From Candidatus Omnitrophota bacterium (GTDB taxonomy: Bacteria; Omnitrophota; Gorgyraeia; Gygaellales; Profunditerraquicolaceae), in contig JBAZKC010000002.1 of assembly GCA_041651035.1 (NCBI GenBank), forward strand, positions 30,884 to 94,883: 64,000 bases of DNA, read 5' to 3'. The notes under the pieces were generated by a model. It saw only the letters and a list, made by a program, of their open reading frames with translations. It had not been told where the DNA came from and ran no database searches. Of the stretch, positions 26,945-63,502 are shown piece by piece; the first letter of the stretch is position 1; each line of letters starts with the position of its first letter. The position numbers and the translations under genes were made by a program.

Positions 26945-27685
26945 ATGAACAGACTTTATTCTCCTTCTCAAAGTGTTTCCGGTGATACTATAACCTTTGA
27001 CAATAAAGAGCAGGTCCATCATGCCAGAAATGTTTTAAGGCTTAAAGTAAATGAGGAAGTTATAATATTTGACGATAAGGGCAATGAGTACTTCTGTGCT
27101 GTAGAGAAAATACTTCCGGAAAGTATTATTTTTAAGGTTAAAGAAAGAAAGGTTCCTATCAATACACTATCAAAGGTCAAGATCACAGTTGCCTGCGCTA
27201 TACCCAAAGCTTCTCATATGGATGACATTGTTGATAAGCTTACACAATTAGGGGTAGGCGCGATCATCCCTATGGAGACCGAGCGTGTGATCGTAAAGCT
27301 GGATAAGCGCAAGAAAATCTTACGCCAGGAGCGATGGGAGAAGATCATTCTAAACGCAAGCCAGCAAAGCCAGAGAAATACTTTAGCTGTATTAGAGCCG
27401 GTAAAGAAGATGGAGGGGGTGTTATCCGAATCAGCCGGTTACGATTTAAAACTGATACCCGCCTTGATAGGGGATAGGAAGCCGCTAAAAGAAGTCCTGG
27501 GTAAATATAAGCCAAAGAATATACTGGTATTAATAGGCCCCGAAGGTGATTTTACCGTCGAGGAAGTTGATTTAGCAATAAAATCCGGTTTTATACCGGT
27601 TACATTAGGGGATTCGGTCCTGCGCGTGGAAACCGCCGCTGTTAGTGTTGCGGCTTTTATCCGGCTATATTATGAAAACAGTTAA
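26945..27685 (+). CDS. rsmE: 16S rRNA (uracil1498-N3)-methyltransferase
   Basis: 246 aa, RsmE family layout (PUA-like N-domain, SPOUT C-domain ..LIGPEGDFT..). Confidence 0.8.
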   Translation: MNRLYSPSQSVSGDTITFDNKEQVHHARNVLRLKVNEEVIIFDDKGNEYFCAVEKILPESIIFKVKERKVPINTLSKVKITVACAIPKASHMDDIVDKLTQLGVGAIIPMETERVIVKLDKRKKILRQERWEKIILNASQQSQRNTLAVLEPVKKMEGVLSESAGYDLKLIPALIGDRKPLKEVLGKYKPKNILVLIGPEGDFTVEEVDLAIKSGFIPVTLGDSVLRVETAAVSVAAFIRLYYENS

Positions 27686-28967
27686 ATTCATTACTTTAGG
27701 CTGTAAGGTAAATCAATTTGATACCCAAAGTATAAGAGAGAGGTTCTTAGGGGCAGGGTACTCGGAAATAGATAACGGAAAACCCGCGGATATTTACCTG
27801 ATTAATACCTGCACAGTTACGCATAGGGCGGACTCTGATTCTCTTAATCTTATCCGCAAAGCAAAAAGAGAGAACTCCCGCGCCAAGATCATAGTTACCG
27901 GCTGCCTTACAGAACTTGATGAAGATTTAATAAGGCAGGCTGCAGCCAAGGTGATAATTGTAAAAAATAAGGATAAAGAAAAGCTGCCTTCACAGGGACT
28001 GACCCCGAAATATAACTCCCGAAGAGCTGTTCTTAGGGGTCTGTCCCTAAGAGCCAACAGCATTTCTTACTTCAAAGGCCACACCCGCGCATTCTTAAAA
28101 ATTCAGGACGGCTGCGATAATTTTTGTTCTTACTGCAAAGTCCCGTTAGTAAGAGGGAGATCGCGTAGCCGTGGCTTAGACAAGATTGTAAGCGACGCGC
28201 GGCAGCTGGTAAAAAACGGTTTTAAAGAGATAGTGCTATGTGGTATTTGCCTGGGTTCGTATGGTAAAGGCTTAAGCAGCGGCAAAAATCTTGTTGATGT
28301 GATTGAAGCGCTGGAAAAAATAGACGGGTTATTGCGCATCAGGTTGAGTTCTATAGAAGCAGGTGATGTTTCAGATAAATTGATTGCTAAGATGGCAGGC
28401 TCCGAGAAATTATGCCCGCATCTGCATATTCCTATCCAAAGCGGTGATGACGATATTTTAAAGAAAATGAACCGCCGCTATAGCCGTAAGGATTATCTGG
28501 CGCTTATCAAAAGAATAAAAAAGAATATTCCCGAAGTTGCCATTACTACGGATGTATTAGTAGGTTTTCCCGGAGAATCTGAATGCAACTTTCAAAATAC
28601 CCTGAAATTAATCAAGGAAATTCTGCCTTTAAAAGTGCATATTTTCCCTTATTCTCCGAGAAAAGGCACACTGGCTAGCGCAAAATTCAATCAAAGGATA
28701 GACCCTGGAATAATAAAAGAAAGGATTGCCCGGCTTAAGGACGTCGCCGGCAGTTGTTCGCTTGAATATAAAAAACAATTCTTGAATAGGAATATGCAGG
28801 TGCTTGTTGAAGGCCGTTCCAAAGAAAACCCCGCTTTCTGGCAGGGCCATACAGGAAATTTCCTAGAGGTTCTAATAAGGTTAGATCTTAATCTAAGCAA
28901 TAAAATCGTTACAACTAAATTAAGAAAACTAAAGGACGATTTTGTTTTAGCGGAGATTTTTCATTAG
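27675..28967 (+). CDS. mtaB: tRNA methylthiotransferase, MtaB/MiaB-like (MTTase N-domain, radical SAM, TRAM)
   Basis: MKTVKFITLGCKVNQFDTQ.., CDNFCSYCKVP radical SAM cluster. Carries a 61-bp in-frame palindromic element at 27993-28053 in the inter-domain linker. Confidence 0.85.
   Translation, partial: KTVKFITLGCKVNQFDTQSIRERFLGAGYSEIDNGKPADIYLINTCTVTHRADSDSLNLIRKAKRENSRAKIIVTGCLTELDEDLIRQAAAKVIIVKNKDKEKLPSQGLTPKYNSRRAVLRGLSLRANSISYFKGHTRAFLKIQDGCDNFCSYCKVPLVRGRSRSRGLDKIVSDARQLVKNGFKEIVLCGICLGSYGKGLSSGKNLVDVIEALEKIDGLLRIRLSSIEAGDVSDKLIAKMAGSEKLCPHLHIPIQSGDDDILKKMNRRYSRKDYLALIKRIKKNIPEVAITTDVLVGFPGESECNFQNTLKLIKEILPLKVHIFPYSPRKGTLASAKFNQRIDPGIIKERIARLKDVAGSCSLEYKKQFLNRNMQVLVEGRSKENPAFWQGHTGNFLEVLIRLDLNLSNKIVTTKLRKLKDDFVLAEIFH
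27993..28053. repeat. Type A GGGAC/GTCCC palindromic element, in-frame inside mtaB
   Basis: cagggactgaccccgaaatataactcccgaagagctgttcttaggggtctgtccctaagag; translated as QGLTPKYNSRRAVLRGLSLRA. Confidence 0.8.
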
Positions 28968-28968
28968 A

Positions 28969-29026
28969 CAGGGACTGGGTCCGAAATATAGCACCAGCAT
29001 GGTTGTTCTTAGGAGCCTGTCCCTAT
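28969..29026. repeat. Type A palindromic element, intergenic, directly after the mtaB stop
   Basis: cagggactgggtccgaaatatagcaccagcatggttgttcttaggagcctgtccctat. Confidence 0.8.
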
Positions 29027-29045
29027 TTATTTTAGCAGAATTATC

Positions 29046-29764: not shown

Positions 29765-29772
29765 AGGAATAT

Positions 29773-30405: not shown

Positions 30406-30418
30406 AAAGAGGTGTATA

Positions 30419-36192: not shown

Positions 36193-36254
36193 CAGGGACT
36201 GTCCCCGAAATGTAGCTCCTGATGGGCTGTTCTTAGGGGACTGCCCCTAGAGAG
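36193..36254. repeat. Type A palindromic element between proB and proA
   Basis: cagggactgtccccgaaatgtagctcctgatgggctgttcttaggggactgcccctagagag. Confidence 0.8.
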
Positions 36255-42264: not shown

Positions 42265-42271
42265 ACGCTTA

Positions 42272-42339
42272 GGGACACCCTTTTTGCCAATCGAGGGACA
42301 CCCTTTCAGCTAATCGGGAGGGTGTCCCTTCAAGGGACA
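42272..42339. repeat. gggacaccc-type palindromic element (two direct gggacaccctttt copies plus inverted agggtgtccc) between rpsA and tyrS
   Basis: gggacaccctttttgccaatcgagggacaccctttcagctaatcgggagggtgtcccttcaagggacat; can form a 9-10 bp hairpin. Confidence 0.7.
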
Positions 42340-44802: not shown

Positions 44803-45600
44803 ATGCGCGACATAAAAGGAAAGGTTTCCATAATCATGCCTGCTTATAATGAAGCAGGCCGCATCGCCGCCAGCATAGAAGAAACAGCCAAAACTTTTAA
44901 CGAGTTTGGGTGCTCTTGGGAGCTCATCGTGATGGATGACGGCTCAAGCGACGATACGTATGAGTTTACCAGAGAAATTTCCAAAAAATACCCCGCCGGC
45001 CGGATTATTATCAAAAAGAACCCTTTTAACATGGGTAAAGGCAGGGCGCTTAAAAAGGCATTACGTTACATAAGCGGGGATTACGCGGTGTTCTTAGACG
45101 CGGATATGGATTTGCACCCCATACAGGTTCAAACGCTTTTTGACATCATGCGCCTGGATAACGCTGATATAGTCATAGGCTCTAAATTGCACCCTAATTC
45201 AATAGTGGATTATTCTTTCCAGCGCAGGCTTTATAGCTGGGTTTATTATTTGTTGGTAAAGATGCTTTTTGGCCTGCCTTGTCATGATACTCAAACCGGC
45301 CTTAAGTTATTTAAGACCGAGGTCTTGCGAAAGGTTTTCCCCCGGATACTGGTAAAGAAATTTGCCTTTGACCTGGAGGTTTTGGTAAACGCGCACCACT
45401 TAGGATATAAAATGGCGGAAGCCCCGATAGTGCTTAGTCCCCAAAGGCGTTATGGCCGTATTGGGCTCAATGCCGTCTTTGTTACTTTATGGGATACCCT
45501 GGCAATATTCTATCGGATGCATATTTTAAAATATTATGACCGTATCCATTATTATCGTCGTAAAAACCTGGCAAAAGAATTTAGAAGAATGCGTAGGTAA
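44803..45600 (+). CDS. Glycosyltransferase family 2 (DPM/undecaprenyl-phosphate sugar transferase-like)
   Basis: VSIIMPAYNE..DDGSSDDT..FLDADMD motifs. Confidence 0.85.
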   Translation: MRDIKGKVSIIMPAYNEAGRIAASIEETAKTFNEFGCSWELIVMDDGSSDDTYEFTREISKKYPAGRIIIKKNPFNMGKGRALKKALRYISGDYAVFLDADMDLHPIQVQTLFDIMRLDNADIVIGSKLHPNSIVDYSFQRRLYSWVYYLLVKMLFGLPCHDTQTGLKLFKTEVLRKVFPRILVKKFAFDLEVLVNAHHLGYKMAEAPIVLSPQRRYGRIGLNAVFVTLWDTLAIFYRMHILKYYDRIHYYRRKNLAKEFRRMRR

Positions 45601-46507
45601 GTGCCTCAAACTCGACTCTGCTGAGTTTGAGATCTTGATCTTGCCTGACGAACCTATTGCCCAAAGGGACAGTCTCTGTTCGGGGACAGTCCCTATTAGA
45701 GTTATTCCCACGGGCCCTGTGTCTCCGGCTGATAAGCGGGACATAGCCATAAAATACGCGAAAGGAGACATCGTTGCTTTTATCGATGACGATGCCTATC
45801 CGGTAAAAGATTGGCTTAAAAACGCGTTAGAGAATTTTAAAGATGAAGAGGTGGCCGCGGTAGGGGGGCCGGCAATAACCAGCCCTCTGGACAGCTTAAG
45901 ACAAAAAGCAAGCGGCGCGATATATTCGTCGTTTTTAGTAAGCGGGGGATTTGTCTATCGTTATCTGCCTAAGGAAAAAAGAGAGATAGATGATTATCCG
46001 AGTTGTAATCTTCTGGTCCGTAAATCCATAATGCGGGAGTTAGGCGGTTTTAATACCAAGTTCTGGCCGGGAGAAGATACTAAGCTTTGCCTGGATATAA
46101 CTGTCAGGCTCGGTAAAAAGATAATTTATGACCCCGGTGTCCTGGTTTATCATCACCGCCGGCCGGTCTTTGTCCCCCATCTTAAGCAGATAGCTAATTA
46201 TGCCCTTCATCGCGGTTATTTCGTAAAGAAATACCCCGAAACCTCTTTAAAGTTGCCTTATTTTATTCCCACGCTATTTCTATTCGCGCTGACAATAGGC
46301 GCTATCTTGTCTATGGTTTCAGCTCCCATTAGAATAATTTATTCTTTAGGGTTGTCGTTATATTTAATTTCAGTTTTTATTTCTAGTATTCGTAATGGCG
46401 CGCGTTTGGCACCTTTTGTATTTTTCGGCATAATATTTACTCATTGCACCTATGGTTTTTATTTCCTGAAAGGCCTTTTTTACCAGAAGCTTTCCGAAGA
46501 AAAATAA
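45536..46507 (+). CDS. Glycosyltransferase family 2 with C-terminal membrane helices
   Basis: VSIIIVVK..IDDDAYP; contains a 28-bp in-frame GGGAC element at 45666-45693 (SLCSGTVP). The start overlaps the upstream GT2 by 65 nt. Confidence 0.75.
   Translation: MTVSIIIVVKTWQKNLEECVGKCLKLDSAEFEILILPDEPIAQRDSLCSGTVPIRVIPTGPVSPADKRDIAIKYAKGDIVAFIDDDAYPVKDWLKNALENFKDEEVAAVGGPAITSPLDSLRQKASGAIYSSFLVSGGFVYRYLPKEKREIDDYPSCNLLVRKSIMRELGGFNTKFWPGEDTKLCLDITVRLGKKIIYDPGVLVYHHRRPVFVPHLKQIANYALHRGYFVKKYPETSLKLPYFIPTLFLFALTIGAILSMVSAPIRIIYSLGLSLYLISVFISSIRNGARLAPFVFFGIIFTHCTYGFYFLKGLFYQKLSEEK
45666..45693. repeat. Short gggacagtc / ggggacagtccc element inside the GT2 CDS
   Basis: gggacagtctctgttcggggacagtccc. 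Confidence 0.6.
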
Positions 46508-46508
46508 T

Positions 46509-46744
46509 GGGGACGGTTCTCTTCGAGAACCGTCCCCAGGTTTCACCAAAACAGGGACTGGTTCCGAAAGCTATTTAAAATCGCGGGGATAATTTGTCAT
46601 TCTGAACTACTACTCTTTTAGTCATTCTGAGCGAAGCGAAGAATCTGTTTTTAGATTCTTCGGCCTGCGGCCTCAGAATGACGACAAGACAGGGACTGGT
46701 CCCGAAAAGTAGCTCAATATAGACTGTTCTTAGGGACCTGTCCC
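46509..46744. repeat. Intergenic nest of palindromic elements: a type B hairpin, a partial type A arm, a long gtcattctgag hairpin and a full type A element
   Basis: 46509-46537 ggggacggttctcTTCGgagaaccgtcccc (13-bp stem, UUCG loop). 46552-46575 cagggactggttccgaaagc. 46621-46682 gtcattctgagcgaagcgaagaatc..gattcttcg..ctcagaatgac, with an extra gtcattctga copy at 46596. 46690-46744 cagggactggtcccgaaaagtagc..ctgttcttagggacctgtccc. Confidence 0.8.
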
Positions 46745-46754
46745 AAAAATAAAT

Positions 46755-48248
46755 ATGAAAATTATAATTTCTTACCCGCCGTTAAAGAACCAAAAAGGCT
46801 GCCCTACGCTTGGCCAAAACCGCCAGTTCCAGTATTTTAAAGACGAAACATTTATTTATCCGGTAGTCCCGGCGCAGGCGGCTACACTGCTAAAACAAGC
46901 AGGGCATGAAGTTATTTGGAATGATTGCCTGGCTCAAGGCTGGGATTACAAAAGGTTCCTTGATTTTATAAAATCTGAGAATCCTGACCTGATCGCTTTT
47001 GAAACAAAAACTCCCGTGATCAAGCAGCACTGGCAGATAATAAACGATATTAAGGGACTGTCTCTGAATGCCCCTAAGATAGCCTTATTCGGCGACCACG
47101 TTACTGCTCTTCCGGAAGAATCATTCCAGAATTCAAAAGTAGACTTTGTATTGACTGGAGGCGACTATGATTTCTTGCTTCTGAATTTATGCAATAACCT
47201 TCAGGGGACGGTTCTCAAAGAGAACCGTCCCCATGTTTTGCCTGCCCCTGAGTTTGAACCCGGCATCTATTATCGCGAAAACAACCAAATTAAAAATACC
47301 GGAAAATTTGAGCTTAACCATGACTTAAATTCACTCCCGTTTATCGATCGTGACTTAACCAAGTGGCAGCTATATGCCCGTAAGAACGGAAATTATAAGA
47401 GGACTCCCGGGACCTACATTATGTCCGGCAGGGATTGTTGGTGGGGAAAATGCACATTTTGCAGCTGGGGGAGTTTCTATCCGTCATTCCGCAGCCGCTC
47501 TGCCAGTAACGTGTTGGATGAGATCGGTGATCTGATAAAACGGTATGGGGTAAGAGAAATAATGGATGATACGGGTAGCCTTCCTACAGGAGGGTGGCTT
47601 AGAGAATTTTGCCGGGGCATGATCTCGCGCGGCTATAATAAAAAAATTTATTTAGACTGCAATATGCGTTTTGGCGCGTTGTCAGCGGAAGAGTACCGGC
47701 TGATGAAGGAAGCCGGGTTTCGTCTGCTTTTATTTGGCTTAGAATCCGCGAATCAGTATACTTTAGACAGGGTAAATAAGAAACTGCGGGTTCAGGATAT
47801 TATTGATTCCTGTAGATCAGCCCGTAAAGCAGGGTTATTCCCGCATATTACGCTTATGTTTGGTTACCCTTGGGAAAGTTATTCCGATGCCTTAAACACC
47901 CTAAAACTGGGGAAATGGTTATTGACTAAGGGTTGCGCTTATACGATGCAGGCAACTGTAGTTATCCCGTATCCCGGCACTCCTCTTTTTGAAGAATGCA
48001 GGAAAGAACGTTGGCTAAAGACCTTAGACTGGGATGATTATGATATGAAGAAGCCTGTGATGACAACCGCCATACCCGATAATAAAATTTTAGGGTTGGT
48101 CCAGGATATGTATAAAGTTTCTTTCCGACCGGATTTTATTTTAAGAAAGATATTTTCCCTAAGGGATATTGAAGATGTAAAATACTCTTTGCGCGCGGCA
48201 AAGAAGGTGTTGGGGCATATTTTTGATTTTAAGAAGGGGGAAAGATGA
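46755..48248 (+). CDS. B12-binding domain radical SAM protein (sugar-modifying candidate)
   Basis: 497 aa, cobalamin-binding N-domain, radical SAM core. Contains an in-frame type B element at 47205-47233 (GTVLKENRPH). Confidence 0.75.
   Translation: MKIIISYPPLKNQKGCPTLGQNRQFQYFKDETFIYPVVPAQAATLLKQAGHEVIWNDCLAQGWDYKRFLDFIKSENPDLIAFETKTPVIKQHWQIINDIKGLSLNAPKIALFGDHVTALPEESFQNSKVDFVLTGGDYDFLLLNLCNNLQGTVLKENRPHVLPAPEFEPGIYYRENNQIKNTGKFELNHDLNSLPFIDRDLTKWQLYARKNGNYKRTPGTYIMSGRDCWWGKCTFCSWGSFYPSFRSRSASNVLDEIGDLIKRYGVREIMDDTGSLPTGGWLREFCRGMISRGYNKKIYLDCNMRFGALSAEEYRLMKEAGFRLLLFGLESANQYTLDRVNKKLRVQDIIDSCRSARKAGLFPHITLMFGYPWESYSDALNTLKLGKWLLTKGCAYTMQATVVIPYPGTPLFEECRKERWLKTLDWDDYDMKKPVMTTAIPDNKILGLVQDMYKVSFRPDFILRKIFSLRDIEDVKYSLRAAKKVLGHIFDFKKGER
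47205..47233. repeat. Type B palindromic element in-frame inside the radical SAM CDS
   Basis: ggggacggttctcaaagagaaccgtcccc (13-bp stem, aaa loop). Confidence 0.75.
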
Positions 48249-49114
48249 AAGGAATAATTTTAGCAGGAGGCAAGGCCAGGAGGCTGTATCCGATCACCAA
48301 GGGGGTCTGTAAGCAAATGCTCCCTATTTACGACAAGCCTATGATTTATTATTCTCTATCTACGTTGATGCTTGCCGGTATAAAGAATATCCTGATAATT
48401 TCTACTCCGGTTGCTCTGCCTAGATTCAAGGATTTATTAGGCGATGGCTCTCTTTTGGGTATTAACATTTCCTATGCCCAACAGCTTGAGCCAAAAGGCA
48501 TAGCCGAAAGTTTTATCGTAGGAGAAAATTTTATCGGGGACGATAAGGTTTGTTTAATATTAGGAGATAATATATTTTACGGGCACAATCTTACCGGGAT
48601 CCTGAAAGAGGCCCGTTCCCTAAAGGAAGGGGCAGCGGTTTTTGGCTATTATGTAAAAGACCCCTCAAGATACGGAGTAATAGGGCTTAACGCTCGGGGC
48701 AGGGTAATCTCAATCCAAGAGAAGCCAAAAAAACCGGCATCCAACTGGGCAATTACTGGATTGTATTTCTATGATAACGAAGTAGTCCGCATCTCAAAGA
48801 GCCTCAAGCCTTCTTACCGCGGAGAATTAGAGATAACCGATGTTAATAACGAATATTTAAAGAAAGGGAAACTTAAAGTCAAACTTTTAAACCGCGGATA
48901 CGCCTGGTTGGATACAGGTACTTGCGATTCTTTAATTGACGCTTCGATGTTCATTAAAACCATAGAAGAGAGGCAAGGGTTAAAGATCGGCTGTATTGAA
49001 GAAGTGGCTTATAGAATGGGGTATATCAACAAAAAACAATTGGCAAATTTGGCGCGGGAAATAGGCACAAATTATGGCGAATACCTAAAGAGCATATTAA
49101 AAGATGAAGAATAA
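48245..49114 (+). CDS. rfbA: Glucose-1-phosphate thymidylyltransferase
   Basis: MKGIILAGGKARRLYPITK..KQMLPIYDKPMIYY signature. Confidence 0.92.
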   Translation: MKGIILAGGKARRLYPITKGVCKQMLPIYDKPMIYYSLSTLMLAGIKNILIISTPVALPRFKDLLGDGSLLGINISYAQQLEPKGIAESFIVGENFIGDDKVCLILGDNIFYGHNLTGILKEARSLKEGAAVFGYYVKDPSRYGVIGLNARGRVISIQEKPKKPASNWAITGLYFYDNEVVRISKSLKPSYRGELEITDVNNEYLKKGKLKVKLLNRGYAWLDTGTCDSLIDASMFIKTIEERQGLKIGCIEEVAYRMGYINKKQLANLAREIGTNYGEYLKSILKDEE

Positions 49115-49952
49115 AATCCTTATTTTAGGCAATGGTTATATCGGTAATAGGCTTTGCGAGGAGCTCGGAGCCGAGCTTGCCGGAGGGAGGATCAGTTCTT
49201 TGCTAGATGCGCAAGAACAGATCCAGATGTATAAGCCTAACATCATTATTAACTGTATCGGGCATACCGGAAGAAACGTTGATGATTGCGAACTGGATAA
49301 GGATAAGACATTAATGGCGAATACATTTGTCCCCGTGATCTTAGGCGAAGCGGCGCTGCGCGATAATATTAAACTCATCCATATCAGCAGCGGATGTATT
49401 TACAAATTTGATTATTCTCAGGATAGTCCTATTAAAGAAGATAAGACGCCCGATTTCTTTAGGCTCTTTTATAGCCGGACCAAGATATACGCCGAACAGG
49501 CGTTAAAGGCATTGTTTAAAGAATGTCCGGCACTGATCGTCAGGATACGCATACCGCTGGACAACCGGCCCCATCCTAAGAATCTGCTTACTAAGCTGCT
49601 GGAGTACAAGAAGATTATCGATATTCCCAATTCAGTTACCTATATCCCAGATTTTATAGAAGCTTTAAAACATTTGATCCATATTAATGCCGAGGGTATT
49701 TACAATGTCGTCAATAGAGATGGCTTGCGCTACCCCGACCTTTTAGATGCATATAAGAAATACATTCCGGATTTTCAATACCGGGTCGTTGACTACAAGG
49801 AATTGAATTTAGTAAGGACTAACCTGATATTGTCTACGGCTAAACTCCAGAGATCCGGCTTTAAGGTGAGAGATATTAATTCTGTTTTAGACGAATGTGT
49901 AAGGGGATATTTGGGATATTCAGGGACTGTCCCCACCAAAGCTATTAGTTAG
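49104..49952 (+). CDS. dTDP-4-dehydrorhamnose reductase-like (RmlD substrate-binding family)
   Basis: ILILGNGYIGNRL Rossmann, HISSGCIY, YSRTKIYAE catalytic YxxxK. The last 10 codons and stop are encoded by the palindromic element at 49921. Confidence 0.65.
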   Translation: MKNKILILGNGYIGNRLCEELGAELAGGRISSLLDAQEQIQMYKPNIIINCIGHTGRNVDDCELDKDKTLMANTFVPVILGEAALRDNIKLIHISSGCIYKFDYSQDSPIKEDKTPDFFRLFYSRTKIYAEQALKALFKECPALIVRIRIPLDNRPHPKNLLTKLLEYKKIIDIPNSVTYIPDFIEALKHLIHINAEGIYNVVNRDGLRYPDLLDAYKKYIPDFQYRVVDYKELNLVRTNLILSTAKLQRSGFKVRDINSVLDECVRGYLGYSGTVPTKAIS

Positions 49953-49981
49953 CCATAACCAAGGGGACTGTCCCTAAAGAG
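49921..49981. repeat. Type A-variant palindromic element spanning the rfbD-like 3' end
   Basis: cagggactgtccccaccaaagctattagttagccataaccaaggggactgtccctaaagag. Confidence 0.75.
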
Positions 49982-49990
49982 GGTGGTATA

Positions 49991-51028
49991 ATGACCAATA
50001 AATCTATCTTGATTACCGGCGGCGCGGGTTTTATCGGCAGCGCCTTTGTAAGATTGTTAAATCAAGGGGACGGTTCTGCCTTTGGTAGAACCGTCCCCGA
50101 GTTTCACAGAACAGGAACTGTCCCTAAGATTATAGTAGTAGACAGCCTTACCTATGCCGGAGATTTAAAGCGTCTTAAAGAAGCAAAGGGCAGATTTAAG
50201 TTCTACAAAGTTGATATTTGCGATAAGAAAAGAATGGAAGCGGTCTTCGCGAAAGAAAAACCGCAAGCCGTAGTGCACTTTGCCGCGGAAAGCCACGTTG
50301 ACCGCAGTATTAATGATGCTACGCCATTTATTGAAACTAATATTAAGGGCACACAAATTCTTCTTGATGCCGGCCGCAAGCACGAGATAAATAAATTTAT
50401 TTTTATTTCCACCGACGAGGTCTACGGAGAGATTGCCAATGGCAAGTTTAACGAAAATTCTCCAATTAGGCCGAACAGCCCTTACGCGGCTTCTAAAGCG
50501 GCAGCAGACCTCCTGGTGCAGGCATATATCAGGACTTACAAATTCCCCGCGATAATTATCCGGCCGTCAAATAATTACGGCCCCTGGCAATACCCGGAAA
50601 AACTCATTCCCTTAGCTGTTTTAAAAATATTGCGCGATAAAAAAGTGCCTGTTTATGCTCAGGGCAAGAATGTCCGGGAGTGGCTTTATGTGGAAGACTG
50701 CGCGAAAGGAATTATGCGGATATTGCAAACGGGAAAGCTTGGGCAGGTTTATAACCTGGGAAGCAATGAAGAAAAACAGAATATAGACGTGGTGAAAATG
50801 ATCTTGAATATTTTCAATAAGCCCGAAAATATGATTGAATTTGTAAAGGACAGGCCCGGGCATGACATACGCTATAGCCTGGATTCCAGGAAGGCCCGTC
50901 GGGAAACTAATTGGAAACCGAAAATAAAGTTCAAAGAAGGCATTAAATTGACCGTATCTTGGTATCTCAAAAACAAGAGTTGGCTTCTTAGTAAATATCC
51001 GTCAGCAGGGACTGGTCCCGAAAAGTAG
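49991..51028 (+). CDS. rfbB: dTDP-glucose 4,6-dehydratase
   Basis: ILITGGAGFIGS.., YAASKAAAD (YxxxK). Has a 62-bp composite element inserted in-frame after the Rossmann motif (50067-50128), and its C-terminus and stop lie inside the element at 51006. Confidence 0.88.
   Translation: MTNKSILITGGAGFIGSAFVRLLNQGDGSAFGRTVPEFHRTGTVPKIIVVDSLTYAGDLKRLKEAKGRFKFYKVDICDKKRMEAVFAKEKPQAVVHFAAESHVDRSINDATPFIETNIKGTQILLDAGRKHEINKFIFISTDEVYGEIANGKFNENSPIRPNSPYAASKAAADLLVQAYIRTYKFPAIIIRPSNNYGPWQYPEKLIPLAVLKILRDKKVPVYAQGKNVREWLYVEDCAKGIMRILQTGKLGQVYNLGSNEEKQNIDVVKMILNIFNKPENMIEFVKDRPGHDIRYSLDSRKARRETNWKPKIKFKEGIKLTVSWYLKNKSWLLSKYPSAGTGPEK
50067..50128. repeat. Composite type B + partial type A element in-frame inside rfbB
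   Basis: ggggacggttctgcctttggtagaaccgtccccgagtttcacagaacaggaactgtccctaag; colinear with the intergenic composite at 46509-46575. Confidence 0.8.
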
Positions 51029-51067
51029 CTTAAGATGAACTGTTCTTAGGGACCTGTCCCTAAAGAG
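51006..51067. repeat. Type A palindromic element overlapping the rfbB stop
   Basis: cagggactggtcccgaaaagtagcttaagatgaactgttcttagggacctgtccctaaagag; the rfbB TAG is the aaaagTAG inside the element. Confidence 0.8.
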
Positions 51068-51078
51068 AGGAAAGTAGT

Positions 51079-52158
51079 ATGTCCATAGTCATAGTTACCG
51101 GTTCTTGCGGTTTGATCGGCTCTGAGGCAGTGAGCTTTTTTTGTGAAAAAGGCTTTAAGGTTATAGGCATAGATAATAATATGCGCGAGGCCTTCTTTGG
51201 CAAAGACGGCAGTACCTTCTGGAACAGGAAACGGCTGGAGAAGAAGCATGAGAACTATAAGCATTATTCAGTTGATATCAGGAATGGATCCGGGATTACG
51301 CGGATTTTTAAGAAATTCCATAAAGATGTTTCTTTGATAATCCACGCCGCTGGCCAACCTTCGCATGATTGGGCTGCGGGTGACCCGAAGACGGATTTTG
51401 GAGTCAATGCCGCCGCTACTTTGTTGCTGCTGGAGGCCTACAGGAAATATTGCCCGGAGTCGGTATTTATTTTTACCTCAACCAACAGAGTTTACGGCGA
51501 TAGGCCTAATTACCTGCCTTTAATAGAGATGGAGAAAAGGTATGAACTTCCTTCAGGCCATGAGTATTATAACGGCATAAACGAGTCCATGAGCATAGAT
51601 AATTGCCTGCACGGTTTATTTGGCGCTTCCAAGGTTAGCGCGGATATATTGACACAGGAGTATGGAAAATATTTCGGCTTAAAAACCGGGGTATTCAGAG
51701 GTGGCTGCCTTACCGGCCCGGCGCATTCCGGGGCAGAGCTTCATGGTTTTTTGTCATATCTGATGAAGTGCTGCGTAACCAAAAAAAAGTATACAATATT
51801 TGGCTATAAAGGCAAACAGGTGCGCGACAATATCCATTCTTATGATCTGGTAAGCGCCTTTTATCATTTTTTTCAGCAGCCGCGCCGCGGGGAAGTTTAT
51901 AATATCGGTGGAGGAAGGTTTGCTAACGTATCGGTTCTGGAGGCAATAGATATATGTGAAAAGGTAACAGGGGCAAAATTAGATTATGAATACGCCGAGA
52001 AAAACAGGATCGGAGACCATATCTGGTGGATAAGCGATGTTTCCAAATTCAGGTCTCATTATCCCGGATGGGCTTATAAATATAACACTGAGGATACCAT
52101 AAAACAGATCTACGAAGTTCAAAAGGGATCAGTAAATTCTAAGAGATTGATCGGTTAA
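51079..52158 (+). CDS. NAD-dependent epimerase/dehydratase (CDP-paratose/tyvelose 2-epimerase-like)
   Basis: [25 protein letters not shown].., SDR-extended fold with a YxxxK. Confidence 0.75.
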
Positions 52159-53794: not shown

Positions 53795-54058
53795 ATGTTC
53801 TGGACTATCGTTGGCTCAACTGCCGCGGCCCTAACCATGTTTTCGTTTGTGCCTCAGATTATCAAAGGATTTACTACGAAATCTGTCAAAGACGTCAGCC
53901 CGGTTACGTTATTTCAACTTTCAAGCGGTGTTTCATTATGGGTTATCTACGGTATATATCTTAAGGATTATGTTATAATAATTGCCAATATAGTAACCCT
54001 GGTTTCTTTAATAATTTTGTTATGCCAGTATTTTAATTACAGAAAAACAAAATGTTAA
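53795..54058 (+). CDS. SemiSWEET / PQ-loop sugar transporter
   Basis: 87 aa, 3 TM helices, PQ motif in FSFVPQIIKG. Confidence 0.7.
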   Translation: MFWTIVGSTAAALTMFSFVPQIIKGFTTKSVKDVSPVTLFQLSSGVSLWVIYGIYLKDYVIIIANIVTLVSLIILLCQYFNYRKTKC

Positions 54059-54075
54059 CGGCTGACGGCTAAAAC

Positions 54076-56055
54076 ATGGAAGAGCGCCCGGTAGTTTCAG
54101 TTATAGTAACAACCAGGAATGAAGAAAATAATATAGCAGGTTGTCTGGAATCCATCAAAAATCAAACCTATCCTCAAGATAGGATTGAAATAATTGTGGT
54201 GGATAACAGCTCTATAGACAAGACTAAGGGAATCGCTTATAAATATACAGATAAAGTATACAATTCTGGCCCTGAGCGCTCAGCCCAGAGAAACTTCGGC
54301 GTAAAACAGGCAGCCGGTAAGTATATTTTGTATTTAGATGCGGATATGGCATTATCTGAAAATGTTATATCTGAATGTGTTCAGAAATGCGAAAAAGAAG
54401 GGTATGTTGCTATATATATACCTGAAAGGATTATTGGTAAAGGGTTTTGGATTAAAGCAAGGGACTTTGAACGGAGTTTTTATAACTCTACCTGTATAGA
54501 TTGTGTAAGATTTATCAGAAAGGATAATTTTCTGGAGATAGACGGTTTTGATGAGACCTTAACAGGACCCGAGGATTGGGATTTTGATAGGAGAATAAAT
54601 AAGAGCGGTAAAGTCGGGATTATAAACTCTGTCTTATATCATAATGAACATAACTTCTGTCTTAGAGAATACCTAAGAACAAAAATCTATTATATTGTAT
54701 CTTTTAATAAATATATACGTAAGTGGGGGAAAGACGACGCAATAATAAAGAAACAACTTGGCTTTTACTATAGGTATTGGGGGGTTTTTATAGAAGACGG
54801 CAGATGGATAAAGCTAATTCTGCATCCTTTGTTAACTATAAGAATTTTTTTATTGAGGTTTCTAGTAGGGGTAGCATATCTATTGAGTAGAATGAAGAAA
54901 AATAGCACAGTTCTTTCCGGAAGAGGAGTGTTGATACTATCTCCATTTTTTTCTCCAAATATGGGAGGAGTTGAAACTCATCTTGATGATCTCTGCGGAT
55001 ACCTTACTTCACATAACTATAGAGTACATGTTATTACTTACCAGCCACTAACTACAAGAGTAAAATGCCCCAAATTTTATAAAAATAATGGCTTGGAAGT
55101 AAAAAGGATTTATTGGTTTAGGGGGAATCTTTTTCACAAATTGGAACCTTATCCTGTTTTGGAAGTTTTATATCTTACGCCCAGACTTCTCTTGAGTACT
55201 TTCTGGTTCTTGGTTTTTAATAAGGATAAGATTGACGTAATACATGCTCACGGATTTAACGCAGTTTTAGTCACTAGACTTGTAAATTTAATATTTAGAA
55301 AAAGATCGGTTATGAGTACTCATGCCATTTACCAGTTAGATAAAAAACCGTTAATGGCAAAATTCATTAAATGGATGTTGGGTGGCATAGATGTAATAAT
55401 GCCTCTTGCAGAGAAATCAAAGAAAGAATTAGTAACAATCGGCGTGCCTGAGAAGAAAATCAGGATTTATACTCAATGGGTTAATCAAGAAATTTTCCGT
55501 CCTTTGTTAAAAAATGAATGTAGAAAGAAATTGAATCTTAAAGGAGAATTCTTTGTGCTTTTTGTCGGCAGGCTGATTGAAAAAAAAGGAGTTTTGGTTT
55601 TATTAGATGTCGCCAGGAAATTACCCGAAATAAATTTTATTTTTGTAGGTAGTGGTCCGGTATTAGGGCGACTCTTGGACGCAAAGACATATTTAAATAA
55701 TATTTTCGTCGCGGGAGAGAAGAACCAAGAAGAAATAAGTATTTTTTATGGGGCTTCCGATGTTGTAGTTGTTCCTTCTCAATATGAAGAAGGCTTTGCT
55801 CGTGTTGTATTGGAAGCGCTTTTCTCGGGGAGACCGGTTATAGCCGTCAACAAAGGGTGTCTTGTCGAAATGTTGAATAAAGACGTTGGGATCTTGGTTG
55901 ATCCTAGTATAGAGAATCTGGCTAAAGCTATTAAATCATTATATCATGATTCGGCATATCTTACTAATATAACCTCCAATACAAGACTATACGCTTTAAA
56001 CCGCTTTAGCGAGAATAATGCTAAAGCCATAATGGGATCCTATGAAAAGAATTAA
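54076..56055 (+). CDS. Bifunctional glycosyltransferase: N-terminal GT2, C-terminal GT4/GT1
   Basis: VSVIVTTRNE..VVDNSS..YLDADM (GT2) and a C-terminal E..FARVVLEALFSGRPVIA (GT4 E-x7-E region). Confidence 0.8.
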   Translation: MEERPVVSVIVTTRNEENNIAGCLESIKNQTYPQDRIEIIVVDNSSIDKTKGIAYKYTDKVYNSGPERSAQRNFGVKQAAGKYILYLDADMALSENVISECVQKCEKEGYVAIYIPERIIGKGFWIKARDFERSFYNSTCIDCVRFIRKDNFLEIDGFDETLTGPEDWDFDRRINKSGKVGIINSVLYHNEHNFCLREYLRTKIYYIVSFNKYIRKWGKDDAIIKKQLGFYYRYWGVFIEDGRWIKLILHPLLTIRIFLLRFLVGVAYLLSRMKKNSTVLSGRGVLILSPFFSPNMGGVETHLDDLCGYLTSHNYRVHVITYQPLTTRVKCPKFYKNNGLEVKRIYWFRGNLFHKLEPYPVLEVLYLTPRLLLSTFWFLVFNKDKIDVIHAHGFNAVLVTRLVNLIFRKRSVMSTHAIYQLDKKPLMAKFIKWMLGGIDVIMPLAEKSKKELVTIGVPEKKIRIYTQWVNQEIFRPLLKNECRKKLNLKGEFFVLFVGRLIEKKGVLVLLDVARKLPEINFIFVGSGPVLGRLLDAKTYLNNIFVAGEKNQEEISIFYGASDVVVVPSQYEEGFARVVLEALFSGRPVIAVNKGCLVEMLNKDVGILVDPSIENLAKAIKSLYHDSAYLTNITSNTRLYALNRFSENNAKAIMGSYEKN

Positions 56056-57064
56056 AGATAAACTTTACGATATTGTAGTCTATAACCGTTCAATTAAGCG
56101 GATGGTGGTCGCCTTTTTTAAAACGCCGATTATCGTGAATAACCCGGCATACAATTTCATTTATGGGCGCTTATTAAAAAAAAAGATGGAGTTATTCAAT
56201 GATATCCCTTTCAGGGTAATGATTGAAAATACGAATAATTGCAATGCAAATTGCGTATTCTGTCCTCATAAAAATATGAAGCGTGAATCCGGCACGATGG
56301 AACTTGCTTTGACACGAAGAATCATAGATGAATGCGCTAATTTCGGGATTACATATTTGACTATTTATGGTTTCGGAGAGCCGCTCCTAGATAAATATTT
56401 TTTTGAGAGGGTAAGATATGCAAAATCAAAGAAGATAGATAGAGTAACCACAAATACAAATGCCATGTATCTGAACAAAAATATCGCTAAAGAGTTTATT
56501 GATTCGGGCATTGACGAAGTATACATAAGTTTTGACGCAGCTACGGCAGATACATTTAAAATGATCAGGCCCAACCTTAATTTTGATACAGTAAAACAAA
56601 ATATACTCGGGTTGATAGAAGAGAAGAAGCGGAGAAAAATCTCCAAACTAAAAGTTTTCTTGAGTTTTGTAGAAGGCAATCATAATATGCATGAAAGAGA
56701 TGCATATATTAAAGAATGGAAGAATAAGGTGGATGGTGTGTCGGTATCATTGATTCATAACTGGACGGGAAGTATCAAGAAAATGGACAAAGAATTGAGC
56801 TGTCTCAGGAGAGATCCTTGTAGGTTGCTTTGGACCGATATGGTCGTAAGCTGGAACGGTGATGTACCTTTATGCTGTAATGATTTTGATAACCGGATAA
56901 TCCTTGGTAATGTCACTTGTTCTTCCATCAAAGAGATATGGTCGGGAGAAAAGCTCAAAAAAATACGGCAATCGCACTTGAATAAAGAATTCTCGGCAAT
57001 AGCCGTTTGTAAAGAATGTGAATATAATCTTCATTTCAAATCACCCTGGTGGATATCAAAATGA
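56042..57064 (+). CDS. Radical SAM/SPASM domain protein
   Basis: CNANCVFC radical SAM cluster. C-terminal Cys cluster C..C..CC..C..CKEC typical of SPASM. Confidence 0.8.
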   Translation: MKRIKDKLYDIVVYNRSIKRMVVAFFKTPIIVNNPAYNFIYGRLLKKKMELFNDIPFRVMIENTNNCNANCVFCPHKNMKRESGTMELALTRRIIDECANFGITYLTIYGFGEPLLDKYFFERVRYAKSKKIDRVTTNTNAMYLNKNIAKEFIDSGIDEVYISFDAATADTFKMIRPNLNFDTVKQNILGLIEEKKRRKISKLKVFLSFVEGNHNMHERDAYIKEWKNKVDGVSVSLIHNWTGSIKKMDKELSCLRRDPCRLLWTDMVVSWNGDVPLCCNDFDNRIILGNVTCSSIKEIWSGEKLKKIRQSHLNKEFSAIAVCKECEYNLHFKSPWWISK

Positions 57065-57870
57065 CGCGTATTAACGACATGGAAGAGGATATCGCTATTA
57101 CAAGAGAAAAATGGCAGAATCGATATTTGGATAGTCAATCTGATAAGTATAAGAGATCCTGCGTACCCTCGACGGTTAAAATAAGCAGTGGGTACGCAAG
57201 AAATTTCCTTTTTGACAATAAACCGGAAAGCGGTATCCTGCTTGAGGCTGGATGTGGGACTGCTAGGACATCATTAGATGTATCCTTTTCAGGAGAGTTG
57301 ACTATAATCTGTGTCGATATATCTATGGGGGCATTAGAACAGGCGCGTAAACTTTTCAAGGAAAATAATCCTTCTGCAAAAGTTTATTTCGTTTGTTGCG
57401 ATTTGAGAACGCTCCCTTTTAAGGGTGCTTCCATAGGGCATATATTCAGTGATGGTGCGATTGAGCATTTCCGGGATACCGGGCTTTCGGTTAAAGAATT
57501 CTACCGTGTGCTTAAATCCGGTGGCAGAGTATTTGCTACTGTTCCATGTGTATCGTTTTCCATGTTTACATACGGACAATTACAGGGTAATATACCCGAT
57601 ATATTCTTACTGAGAAATCTATTTGAAGTGATTCATATAAAAATGCTTAGATCCAAATTAATGACCAATGGTTATGAATTATCATTCATCCCTGGTAAAA
57701 TCAGGGGTATTTTTAAAAATGCTGGCTTTAAGTATCCCCGGATTGGCCTTTTCGATACTTTTAACGAGATTAAATTCGTCAGAAACCAGTTTCTAAAACA
57801 AATATTTAGAAGGCTGACAAAGATGCGCATGTTTTGGCCATTGATTTATATTTTTGCGGAGAAACAATGA
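57061..57870 (+). CDS. Class I SAM-dependent methyltransferase
   Basis: LEAGCGTAR motif I; ATG at 57061 overlapping the upstream stop (ATGA). Confidence 0.75.
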   Translation: MTRINDMEEDIAITREKWQNRYLDSQSDKYKRSCVPSTVKISSGYARNFLFDNKPESGILLEAGCGTARTSLDVSFSGELTIICVDISMGALEQARKLFKENNPSAKVYFVCCDLRTLPFKGASIGHIFSDGAIEHFRDTGLSVKEFYRVLKSGGRVFATVPCVSFSMFTYGQLQGNIPDIFLLRNLFEVIHIKMLRSKLMTNGYELSFIPGKIRGIFKNAGFKYPRIGLFDTFNEIKFVRNQFLKQIFRRLTKMRMFWPLIYIFAEKQ

Positions 57871-59968: not shown

Positions 59969-59987
59969 TACCGCGCTTAAATATTTT

Positions 59988-61214: not shown

Positions 61215-61226
61215 AAAGGCGTCGTC

Positions 61227-61601: not shown

Positions 61602-61607
61602 GAAATT

Positions 61608-63501: not shown

Positions 63502-63502
63502 A

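Follow-up and report, generated by a model that had tools for sequence, protein, structure and literature searches.

A segment in frame within the rfbB gene of this Omnitrophota genome is likely to be selfish palindromic DNA of the REP/REPIN kind, carried in a tolerant surface loop of the RfbB protein. Occupation of the loop is not a one-off, as related palindromes stand there in 94 of 105 RfbB orthologues (about 90%). The window referred to throughout is the whole 64-kb stretch of DNA that was analysed, and the host gene and its insertion lie in it as follows.

49991..51028, plus strand: rfbB/rmlB, the gene that carries the insertion, for a dTDP-glucose 4,6-dehydratase of 345 aa (from the ORF list)
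50059..50105, plus strand: type B element in rfbB, made up of AAATCAA, the 33-nt hairpin 50066-50098 and GAGTTTC
50108..50128, plus strand: single type A arm acaGGAACTGTCCCTAAG in rfbB, encoding part of HRTGTVPK

The RfbB product starts MTNKSILITGGAGFIGSAFVRLLNQGDGSAFGRTVPEFHRTGTVPKIIVVDSLTYAG and, judged by its family model, motifs and fold, is a dTDP-glucose 4,6-dehydratase (RmlB/RfbB) of the extended SDR type. It matches TIGR01181 with 415 bits against a cut-off of 365, solved RmlB structures in the PDB match it at E = 1e-90, and its AF2 model (pLDDT 88 overall) gives Foldseek TM-scores of 0.83-0.94 against 1keu, 2hun and 1r66. The motifs GGAGFIG (GxxGxxG), STDEVYG (T-D-E) and YAASK (YxxxK) all fall on invariant columns of the orthologue alignment, and TDE and YxxxK, the catalytic motifs, are intact.

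The sequence-only reading had placed a palindromic element within rfbB without a break in the reading frame, and this holds: positions 50066-50128 (GGGGACGGTTCTgcctttggtAGAACCGTCCCCgagtttcacagaacaGGAACTGTCCCTAAG) fall inside ORF 49991..51028, the B hairpin and the A arm are both in frame and stop-free, and the two flanks of the insert continue one gene. The type B unit consists of two inverted copies of the 12-mer GGGGACGGTTCT, which in rfbB form the 33-nt hairpin GGGGACGGTTCT-gcctttggt-AGAACCGTCCCC at 50066-50098. Its perfect 12-bp arms lengthen to 15 bp with one G-T pair, the loop is TTT, and the 76-nt stretch that contains the hairpin folds at -35.3 kcal/mol (z = -5.7 against shuffles). In Omnitrophota, 29 copies of B have seven conserved flanking bases on each side, with the consensus TnG[A/T]TTT; the B element of rfbB therefore spans about 50059-50105, where it encodes NQGDGSAFGRTVPEF, and the A arm occupies 50108-50128. 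The stretch of RfbB peptide translated at the insert is GDGSAFGRTVPEF. Direct reading of the element cores found no stop codon in any reading frame. The arms of B begin GGGGAC and end GTCCCC, so that the palindrome ends show neither the terminal GTAG nor the terminal CGTC tetranucleotide of REPs, CGTC being internal to the arm and never terminal. As an intrinsic (Rho-independent) terminator the rfbB hairpin was rejected: the bases directly 3' of it, GAGTTTCACA, contain no T-run, and a scan for hairpins with T-runs, which reports the B copies at 46509 (minus strand) and 47204, does not report the rfbB copy.

In the RfbB model the insert sits in the loop between the first Rossmann helix (residues 14-24) and strand beta2 (46-50). 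Alignment gives a net insertion of 15-16 residues against the solved RmlB structures and of 16-18 against orthologues with an 'empty' loop, less than the 22-23 residues originally proposed. The proposal that the insert is foreign to RmlB of unrelated bacteria fared better: it is missing from the solved structures, which come from unrelated bacteria and thus show no conservation of the segment there, and from the 11 orthologues with short loops of 5-7 residues. The insert loop is predicted to be disordered, with pLDDT below 50 at residues 28-35 and 38-40; the C-terminal residues 339-345 also fall below 50. The loop between helix alpha-A and beta2 belongs, in a Rossmann fold, to the N-terminal edge of the sheet, and the cofactor crevice is on the opposite side. 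On this textbook topology the insert is probably distant from the NAD site in three dimensions, and the nearness to that site claimed at first is true of the linear sequence but probably not of the folded protein.

The window holds further copies of both elements, between genes, at gene ends and in frame.

46502..46575, plus strand: intergenic B+A composite, with B hairpin 46509-46537, the flank sequence AGGTTTCAC and a type A left arm that stands alone
47197..47239 (hairpin 47204-47232), plus strand: type B element in frame in the B12-binding/radical-SAM gene 46755..48248, encoding QGTVLKENRPH
49921..49981, plus strand: complete type A element at the rmlD-like/rfbB junction, ending 10 nt before the rfbB start codon
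51006..51064, plus strand: complete type A element over the rfbB 3' end, ending 14 nt before the next start codon
46690..46748, plus strand: complete type A element, separated by 6 nt from the radical-SAM start codon downstream of it
27993..28051, plus strand: complete type A element in frame in the MiaB/RimO-like methylthiotransferase gene 27645..28967, encoding SQGLTPKYNSRRAVLRGLSLR
28969..29027, plus strand: complete type A element starting 2 nt past the methylthiotransferase TAG stop
36193..36251, plus strand: complete type A element where two genes meet, with 6 nt between it and the preceding stop codon and 9 nt between it and the following start codon
45666..45695, minus strand: short type A-like arm pair in frame in the glycosyltransferase gene 45536..46507, with the peptide SLCSGTVPI

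The 12-mer arm occurs six times in the window and makes up three hairpins (at 46509, 47204 and 50066), against 0.14 occurrences expected by chance. The arm with its GTTTCAC flank pattern has four matches against 0.00 expected, and GGGAC...GTCCC hairpins with a stem of at least 9 bp number ten in 64 kb against 0.02 in shuffles. Elements of type B measure 47 nt in the window and those of type A 59 nt, the latter laid out as inverted ends of about 23 nt around a core of about 30 nt. The earlier statement that a B+A composite also occurs between genes was borne out at 46502-46575, within a 247-nt repeat cluster in the interval between the glycosyltransferase and radical-SAM genes. Aligned with the rfbB copy, it is identical in 57 of 78 columns, in all 12+12 stem bases and in 24 of the 38 columns of the tail after the hairpin. 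A stem and a similar tail common to two sites of one genome support the derivation of the rfbB segment from an element.

One third of the element copies in the window lie within or overlap coding sequence, and in-frame palindromes occur in four unrelated genes (rfbB, B12/radical-SAM, MiaB-like and glycosyltransferase). At the 47204 site of the B12/radical-SAM protein a 12-residue insertion is missing in most of 15 homologues, and it amounts to 12 codons only if the B flanks are included. The MiaB/RimO-like peptide lies in the linker preceding the radical-SAM core; a net insertion is not demonstrable there against solved structures, because the solved MiaB linker has a similar length at that point, and the case for a putative repeat copy is made by the identity of its DNA with the type A copies elsewhere. 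The type A elements on either side of rfbB supply gene ends: the one at 49921..49981 gives the upstream rmlD-like gene its last residues, GTVPTKAIS, and its TAG stop (49952), and the one at 51006..51064 gives RfbB its C-terminus, SAGTGPEK, and its TAG stop (51028). The rmlD-like gene and rfbB overlap by 28 nt in four syntenic orthologue loci (L118, L119, L120 and L241). It had been suggested that lengths divisible by three would mark selection for the frame. Two of the B hairpins have 29 nt and two others 30 and 33 nt, and frame preservation is no property of the element. REPs are extragenic by name, so that the cases in coding DNA show selfish hairpins lengthening proteins without destroying them.

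The orthologues (n = 105, 63-73% identical, all source-named members being Omnitrophota) have this loop as the sole large indel site of the protein core, the remainder being almost free of indels. The shortest loop has 5 residues and the longest 42, the median being 15. The occupants of the loop belong to at least six palindrome families of very different lengths, and the element types are mixed and do not track the tree of the rest of the protein. Folding of the loop DNA gives -17.6 to -50.4 kcal/mol in six orthologues, where the empty one gives -6.3, and in four of six orthologues examined 14-mers from the loop recur elsewhere in their own locus. Many orthologues have GTVP directly N-terminal of strand beta2.

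The closest orthologue, L118, has a complete type A element in the loop, its DNA reads GGGGACTGTCCCTAAA immediately 5' of the beta2 codons, and the A arm of our rfbB stands in the position of the right arm of that element. L119 has the identical B hairpin in the same frame of the same loop, the 13-bp arms being identical between two proteins only 66-68% identical, and the DNA of L120 shows an empty site. The arm identity of the L119 pair is also compatible with selection on the hairpin instead of recent insertion. Since L119 carries the B hairpin unchanged and L118 a complete A element, the A arm of rfbB is probably what remains of an earlier resident and not half of a single composite insertion. 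The insertion of B and A as one unit, as first envisaged, thus probably gives way to a different history, and the occupied loops of the wider orthologue set speak against it as well.

The same observations may be read, though we think it unlikely, as the mark of a hairpin co-opted as an RNA or DNA regulator of the rfb operon and kept by selection, whether as a ribosome pause 25 codons into rfbB, as an RNase III target or mRNA stabiliser, or as a partial terminator. A very stable 15-bp stem early in the coding sequence, arms unchanged in L119 although the proteins have diverged, and a loop so widely occupied would all fit such a role. So would the two other B copies of the window, which match the pattern of a terminator hairpin with its T-run, and the A elements, which sit exactly at gene junctions in one orientation and provide stops and purine-rich sequence 5' of starts. 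However, at least six unrelated occupant types of widely varying length suit a tolerant site better than a conserved regulator, 11 orthologues are without any insert, and the rfbB stem has no T-run 3' of it. Rfam recognised no family in 45400-51300 or in six repeat-rich loci, with only sub-threshold matches to microRNA precursors, of the kind that generic hairpins give.

The exact B hairpin is present in more than 117 genome stretches, and the exact B core in at least eight phyla or groups: Omnitrophota, Bacillota, Bacteroidota, Actinomycetota, Planctomycetota-labelled MAGs, Peregrinibacteria, Atribacteria and Nitrospirales. Of the 144 B copies in the window and in 117 genome stretches taken together, a proxy gene call places 122 (about 85%) between genes, and as many as five stand within 8 kb in Oribacterium and in a Lachnospiraceae MAG. 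Y1 ORFs were identified by HMM search in L008, L056, L002, L224 and L233; the Y1 genes of L008, L056, L002 and L233 have GGGGACGGTTC(T) on the left and (A)GAACCGTCCCC on the right. The flank evidence comes from seven loci in bacteria other than this genome. At five (L008, L056, L002, L233 and L247) the B 12-mer stands on both sides of the Y1_Tnp gene in inverted orientation, and at L224 and L249 there is an upstream copy alone, at L224 because the contig ends 5 nt past the gene, while the downstream copy of L249 is degenerate. The Y1 proteins at B-flanked loci score 57-62 bits with PF01797, for which the cut-off is 23, and JGI labels clade members 'REP element-mobilizing transposase RayT'. RayT homologues picked by protein similarity alone have the same B flanks; in Clostridium aceticum (CP009687) the sole two B cores in 8.7 kb bracket the RayT gene, and at a Maledivibacter locus a B core lies upstream of it. 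Oribacterium NK2B42 likewise has a B-flanked RayT. As the 12-mer flanks Y1 (HUH) RayT genes in inverted orientation, it behaves as the REP of that transposase clade.

Searches nearer home gave a different picture. No Y1 transposase gene was found in the 64-kb window by tblastn with Omnitrophota Y1 protein queries, and none of the best 120 matches of the Omnitrophota RayT search lay on the source contig. Among the best 120 profile matches there was no B-associated RayT from Omnitrophota, the named ones being from Clostridia/Bacillota. The Omnitrophota RayT clade examined is flanked by a different REP, GTAGACAGT[C/T]TACGTAA, which starts with GTAG and is neither A nor B, and three further Omnitrophota members (L244-L246) have a GTAG-type REP or none, never A or B.

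Type A, with its inverted ends and short core, might be taken for a conventional MITE, an internally deleted IS with terminal inverted repeats that a DDE enzyme moves and that leaves target-site duplications, and MITEs, too, are typically found as clusters of small elements nested in one another (PMC10969869). We regard this origin as quite improbable. The copies are without flanking direct repeats (none at the three B sites read in the window), no parent IS with matching ends was found, plasmid and phage collections gave no match (blastn with the 68-nt nested palindrome returned nothing useful), and the B core brackets genes of Y1/HUH transposases, not DDE ones.

It is highly improbable that the loop is an ordinary lineage-specific feature of the protein, inherited vertically and selected as a peptide for partner-binding or localisation, with palindromy secondary. 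Most orthologues do have an extended loop at this exact site, many of them with GTVP before beta2. Yet on direct reading a single DNA word, GGGACTGTCCC, yields GTVP, GLSP and RDCP in its three frames, copies between genes in the same genomes match the loop DNA, the loop types part company with the protein tree, and the loop is predicted to be disordered. The insert peptide is most probably a neutral passenger. An assembly artefact, with repeats giving rise to a chimera in a metagenome-assembled genome, is scarcely credible: although the exact RfbB protein is known from a single contig and repeats attract misassembly, the insert is in frame and stop-free, the gene is continuous on both flanks, and independent assemblies from other samples have a like insert at the identical site.

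We also set aside a CRISPR array (irregular spacing, 12-nt unit only), parS (GTTTCAC is a half-site only and the arrangement is wrong), a LexA box (wrong orientation and spacing) and Tn3-type ends (only the initial GGGG in common). Excision of the hairpin from mRNA or ribosomal bypass is unneeded, because the insert is in frame and stop-free. A metagenome scan for the arm with GTTTCAC returned mainly gut and rumen contigs and one abundant coding sequence matching by chance. A full-text literature search for 10-mer strings gave unrelated papers, none on bacterial repeats, and one for 'Omnitrophica' with 'palindromic' gave nothing relevant.

For a REP/REPIN-like element in a tolerant loop, we propose the following history. 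An early palindrome in the RfbB loop may have served as a landing pad, and later REPs would have inserted beside it or replaced it, by a RayT-type single-strand cut-and-join or by recombination or gene conversion with other genomic copies. The outcome in this genome would be a B element abutting the remnant arm of an A element. Copies that broke the frame or bore stops would have been lost; survivorship explains frame preservation, and the stop-free cores help. We infer the mobility of B and A, since neither an insertion event nor an empty/filled polymorphism was observed.

More tentatively, the loop could be an Omnitrophota-wide landing pad for REPs, with successive insertion, nesting and overwriting, and GGGGACGGTTCT could belong to a RayT-REP pair that is identical in at least eight phyla; we hold this broader reading to be possible rather than probable. 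REP families are usually described as lineage-specific and mostly vertically inherited. A recognition sequence identical in at least eight phyla would imply either horizontal spread or extreme conservation of the partnership between REP and transposase. If the landing-pad reading is true, the locus is a record of single-strand transposition that entered coding DNA many times independently, and is a natural experiment in how a protein absorbs selfish DNA.

Whichever history applies, the 105 orthologues, with at least six families in one loop, form a replicated example in which insertion-site choice, nesting and protein tolerance are open to study, and the 12-nt sequence and the RayT clade form a testable pairing. 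There is also a warning for annotation of Omnitrophota and similar uncultured lineages. GTVP, GLSP, RDCP and GDGS...RTVP are translated repeat DNA and no protein signatures, and it is often such elements that provide the ends of genes and the junctions between them.

Small hairpin repeats that cluster, nest and can resemble terminators or carry expression signals are known from pneumococcus (SPRITE, BOX and RUP) and Neisseria (Correia) (PMC10969869). These differ from A and B in being mostly extragenic and MITE-type, with other ends. To our knowledge none of them repeatedly occupies one protein loop in frame. Of the marks of a DDE-derived MITE, our elements show the inverted ends but not the flanking direct repeats, the parent IS or a plasmid or phage match.

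The REP/REPIN-RAYT systems, which pair repetitive extragenic palindromes with Y1 transposases (Nunvar 2010, PMC2817692; Bertels & Rainey 2011, PMC3116915; Corneloup 2021, PMC8266576), are closer. Like REPs and REPINs, the elements here are short GC-rich hairpin repeats in many copies, mostly intergenic and often clustered; the B unit, as in a REPIN, is two inverted repeats forming one long hairpin; and as in REP-RAYT systems, the B repeat in other genomes brackets a Y1_Tnp gene in inverted orientation and B copies lack target-site duplications. B differs from classical REPs in having no terminal GTAG tag, and a cognate transposase was not found for this genome in the 64-kb window or among the best 120 RayT matches. 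REP families as generally understood are lineage-specific, whereas the 12-mer core of B is identical in at least eight phyla. This cross-phylum REP core appears new. One third of the window copies lie in or overlap coding sequence, unlike extragenic REPs.

Intragenic palindromes have precedents, as far as the available text of the sources describes them. The RPEs stand in frame in many unrelated housekeeping genes at fold-compatible positions (Ogata et al. 2000 via PMC10969869); RPE-1, of about 100-150 bp, has its own conserved peptide, and that text assigns no transposase to RPEs (PMC10969869). Our elements resemble these accounts in being palindromic repeats in frame in unrelated protein-coding genes, and are set apart by size (about 47-60 nt), by host phylum, apparently by sequence, and by the RayT partner of the B core in other genomes. 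Intragenic GTAG/CGTC REPs, again in the available text, reach their highest numbers in Rickettsia conorii and in Opitutus terrae, a member of the Verrucomicrobia (PVC group); they lie in frame in known genes, dimers encoding 20-30 residues, with inserts in loops or linkers and REP ends donating TAG stops to neighbouring genes, and two Xanthomonas species have different REPs at about the same point of their recB genes (Di Nocera et al. 2013, PMC3733652). The elements described here share with those the in-frame position, the placement in loops and linkers and the donated TAG stops (at 49952 and 51028), and belong to another sequence family. As in-frame intragenic REPs have already been described in Opitutus terrae and as the RPEs of Rickettsia, the rfbB case belongs to a known kind and does not reveal a new kind of system. 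What that text reports on no such scale is a single loop that at least six families, nesting included, fill in about nine tenths of 105 orthologues, and this hot spot common to the orthologues appears new beside the published cases.

The palindromic repeat in rfbB is genuine and far above chance. At 50066-50098 the gene reads GGGGACGGTTCT-gcctttggt-AGAACCGTCCCC, a type B hairpin of two inverted 12-mer arms, and continues with gagtttcacagaaca-GGAACTGTCCCTAAG, which ends at 50128. Six copies of the 12-mer arm are present in the window against 0.14 expected; they form three identical-arm hairpins (46509, 47204 and 50066), and the pattern of arm plus GTTTCAC flank has four matches against none expected. 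The rfbB hairpin has a 15-bp stem closed by a 3-nt loop, and the 76-nt stretch folds at -35.3 kcal/mol (z = -5.7). The same order of B hairpin, GTTTCAC and type A arm is found between genes at 46502-46575, where 57 of 78 alignment columns are identical to the rfbB copy. The sequence-only reading was thus right that an element-derived insert lies in frame in rfbB and that the same B+A order recurs intergenically; what it said of the insert's size, three-dimensional position, frame preservation and origin in one composite insertion needs revising. Copies from Omnitrophota (29) share seven extra bases on each side, with the consensus TnG[A/T]TTT, so the type B element in rfbB spans about 50059-50105. 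It encodes NQGDGSAFGRTVPEF.

The host open reading frame, 49991-51028, is a dTDP-glucose 4,6-dehydratase (TIGR01181, 415 bits, cut-off 365) that matches solved RmlB structures with E = 1e-90. The GxxGxxG, T-D-E and YxxxK motifs all align on invariant columns, and the AlphaFold model (pLDDT 88, pTM 0.89) reaches TM-scores of 0.83-0.94 when superposed on RmlB structures. The exact protein has one recorded source, a 385,813-bp contig of an uncultured Candidatus Omnitrophota bacterium. Compared with the solved structures the insert adds 15-16 residues, not 22, between helix alpha-A and strand beta2, which are residues 14-24 and 46-50 of the model. The pLDDT falls below 50 at residues 28-35 and 38-40, and also at the element-encoded C-terminus, 339-345. 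In the Rossmann fold the alpha-A/beta2 loop and the cofactor crevice are on opposite sides of the sheet, so the claimed closeness to the NAD site is true of the linear sequence but probably not of the structure.

We compared this loop in 105 close homologues, which share 63-73% identity with the window RfbB; all those with a named source are Omnitrophota. Its length ranges from 5 to 42 residues (median 15), and only 11 of the 105 have an 'empty' loop of 5-7 residues. Elsewhere the 330-residue core is almost free of indels, with one minor second site at residues 62-69. The loop classes are KGLSPKGTVPE, RDCP...RGLS, [G/R]DGS...RTVP, GDSSPIG.RNV, NKWDRFYFS...KNRNGP, VIARS...KQS and GIHPERSEGPS. 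GTVP, GLSP and RDCP are three reading frames of one DNA word, GGGACTGTCCC, while the GDGS...RTVP class is a translated B hairpin. On a neighbour-joining tree built from RfbB minus the loop, the classes are intermixed.

The orthologue DNA was read in eight syntenic loci. One (L119) has aaaGGGGACGGTTCTCtatcGAGAACCGTCCCCgta at the same rfbB site and in the same frame, with a second B hairpin immediately 3' of the rfbB stop. In L118, the closest orthologue, the loop is occupied by a full type A element whose right arm aligns with the window's arm, which speaks against a single composite B+A insertion. The L241 loop is a hairpin nested within a hairpin (-50.4 kcal/mol) and the L243 loop a 27-bp stem (-46.1 kcal/mol); the empty loop of L120 forms no hairpin (-6.3 kcal/mol). 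Of the six filled loci, four repeat 14-mers from the loop elsewhere in their own 15-21 kb.

Insertions also recur at a second site, the boundary of rmlD and rfbB (L242 9941-9956; window 49921-49981). In L118, L119, L120 and L241 these genes share a 28-nt overlap, whereas a GTAG-type REP lies between them in L242 and a type A element does so in the window. RfbB has a minor third site following DLKRL, where orthologues P0016, P0100, P0103, P0106, P0113 and P0119 carry GLSPKGTVP.

Type A is a 59-nt element, CAGGGACTGnnCCCGAAA...CTGTTCTTAGGGnnCTGTCCCTAAA, whose arms pair mutually and whose inner stem co-varies among copies (ACCCC/GGGGT, TCCCC/GGGGA, GTCCC/GGGAC). All six full copies in the window have the + orientation of the genes (62/62 proxy genes on the + strand, coding share 94%), and five lie exactly at gene junctions:

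28969-29027, + strand, full type A copy at a gene junction
36193-36251, + strand, full type A copy at a gene junction
46690-46748, + strand, full type A copy at a gene junction
49921-49981, + strand, full type A copy at a gene junction
51006-51064, + strand, full type A copy at a gene junction

Two copies contain the TAG stop of the upstream gene (rmlD-like at 49952; rfbB at 51028), and four end 6-14 nt ahead of the next start codon. Type A elements serve as ready-made gene junctions. The junction copies either include the upstream stop as TAG or begin no more than a few bases from it, and their 3' end, CCCTAAAGAG, lies 6-14 nt before the next ATG, the expected position of a ribosome-binding site.

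More widely, 10 GGGAC...GTCCC hairpins with stems of at least 9 bp occur in the 64 kb, against 0.02 in shuffles; three are intragenic, two overlap gene ends and the others are intergenic. Further AGGGAC...GTCCCT-bounded hairpins with differing interiors occupy intergenic gaps at 2437-2492, 42271-42329 and 31306-31405. The hairpin at 31329-31379 is nested between type A-like arms, and the arm AGGGACGTTTCTTGAGC at 2437 resembles AGGGACGTTTCTGAGCC, the outer hairpin of the L241 RfbB loop. The glycosyltransferase/radical-SAM repeat cluster at 46580-46690 holds a third palindrome family, GTCATTCTGAGCGAAGCGAAGAATC...GATTCTTCGGCCTGCGGCCTCAGAATGAC, whose translations (VIARS..KQS, HPERSEG-like) are also present in other Omnitrophota RfbB loops.

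Elsewhere in the window, 29105-31123 holds three tandem paralogues (period about 660 nt, 73-86% DNA identity) with Cys/Tyr/Gly-rich products of about 220 aa, each with an N-terminal hydrophobic stretch resembling a signal peptide. Five small paralogous genes in a row at 20604-22878 have prepilin-type N-termini (GFTLxEL...) and probably encode pseudopilins, either for type II secretion or for a type IV pilus. In the final 10 kb (54000-64000) G+C drops from about 44% to 35-39%; this part continues the gene-dense stretch of the rfb and epimerase genes and may be a separate acquisition.

Other genes also carry in-frame copies. The B12/radical-SAM gene has a B hairpin encoding QGTVLKENRPH, and 12 residues are absent there in most of 15 homologues. 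A MiaB-like methylthiotransferase has a full type A copy in a linker, and a glycosyltransferase gene a short type A pair. Hairpin length in type B varies (29, 29, 30 and 33 nt), so a length divisible by three is not a property of the element. Read directly, the B arms and the type A core have no stop codon in any of the six frames. Intragenic copies that survive are necessarily in frame.

A scan of one genome per species for the exact B hairpin gave more than 117 stretches among the matches listed, whose hosts include Omnitrophota, Lachnospiraceae, Oribacterium, Clostridia, Bacteroidales, Prevotellaceae, Micropruina, Propionicimonas, Planctomycetales-labelled MAGs, Peregrinibacteria, Atribacteria and Nitrospirales; about 85% of these listed copies are intergenic. 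Flanks and centres vary by lineage and stay palindromic, often straight through the centre. In Micropruina and Propionicimonas (L010, L022, L043, L106, L117) and Clostridiales UBA3678 (L002, L040), tandem direct 12-mer arrays with a 21-23-nt period are followed by a mirror-image array, giving very long palindromes rather than single hairpins. In Planctomycetales-labelled MAGs (L048 5910-5946; L059 3247-3283 and 6817-6853) the loop of the B hairpin contains a type A core, GGGACCTGTCCCC or GGGGACAGGTCCC, nesting both families in a single element.

An HMM made from the Y1_Tnp genes of three syntenic Omnitrophota loci identified Y1 ORFs in five loci, all fetched solely for the B core. In four of these loci the ORF has GGGGACGGTTC(T) on one flank and (A)GAACCGTCCCC on the other, and the flanking repeats occur singly, as hairpins or in tandem arrays. 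In the fifth (L224) only the upstream copy is seen, because the contig stops 5 nt past the gene. All the B-associated ORFs are PF01797 above cut-off, their proteins have HUH (NHVHLL) and Tyr (RYIHxNP) motifs, and clade members bear the JGI name 'REP element-mobilizing transposase RayT'. As an unbiased test of the flanks, two RayT members were picked by protein similarity alone. Within 8.7 kb of the complete Clostridium aceticum genome there are only two cores, inverted and on either side of the RayT gene, one 75 nt upstream of it and one 7 nt downstream; the Maledivibacter locus has a core 62 nt upstream. With inverted cores bracketing RayT genes, type B is the REP of a RayT clade, and its hairpin form is a minimal REPIN. 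The C. aceticum locus also has an IS200/IS605-type pair, Y1_Tnp and OrfB/TnpB (L247 5418-6918), about 0.7 kb downstream of the B-flanked gene.

At E <= 1e-10 the Omnitrophota RayT clade comprises 4098 members. The genes examined are flanked by a different REP, TTGTAGACAGTCTACGTAAC, which is dispersed as well (7 copies within 21 kb of L241), and not by types A and B; the 64-kb window has no Y1 gene. We therefore infer, rather than observe, mobility of A or B in this organism. In four Omnitrophota genomes (L241 7314-7997, L242 7246-7821, L243 6598-7284, L244 6001-6687) a RayT-type Y1 gene lies about 2.5 kb upstream of rmlA-rmlD-rfbB, at a conserved site with tyrS on one side and a SWEET/PQ-loop gene on the other; the REPs that flank it are of the GTAG type, GTAGACAGT[C/T]TACGTAA. 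The gene is missing from L120, which retains one GTAG-type REP at the same place. The family cores are similar (GGGACnGTCCC, GGGACGGTTCT, GGGACCGTTTCT, TAGACAGTCTA), a resemblance that hints at one superfamily.

The most likely mechanism is the spread of a REP/REPIN into a tolerant loop already holding a palindrome. Copies would reach the RfbB loop with its resident palindrome through single-strand transposition of the RayT type or through recombination with one another, and selection would afterwards purge those that break the frame. That the hairpin has been co-opted for a regulatory role is less likely.

The rfbB case belongs to a known phenomenon, as intragenic in-frame REPs have already been described. 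A text search of a paper library for the 10-mer strings gave no match in the literature on bacterial repeats. Passages of Di Nocera et al. (PMC3733652) report in-frame intragenic REPs from several species, which are most numerous in Opitutus terrae (PVC group) and Rickettsia conorii, with REP dimers encoding 20-30 residues and REP ends often providing TAG stops. Rickettsia palindromic elements are the classic in-frame case (PMC10969869). The likeness to the O. terrae and R. conorii REPs lies in the in-frame intragenic repeats and in the TAG stops supplied by REP ends. Two features go beyond those passages of PMC3733652: one loop filled in about 90% of orthologues by many families, with nesting, and a REP core that recurs unchanged, along with its transposase clade, in many phyla.
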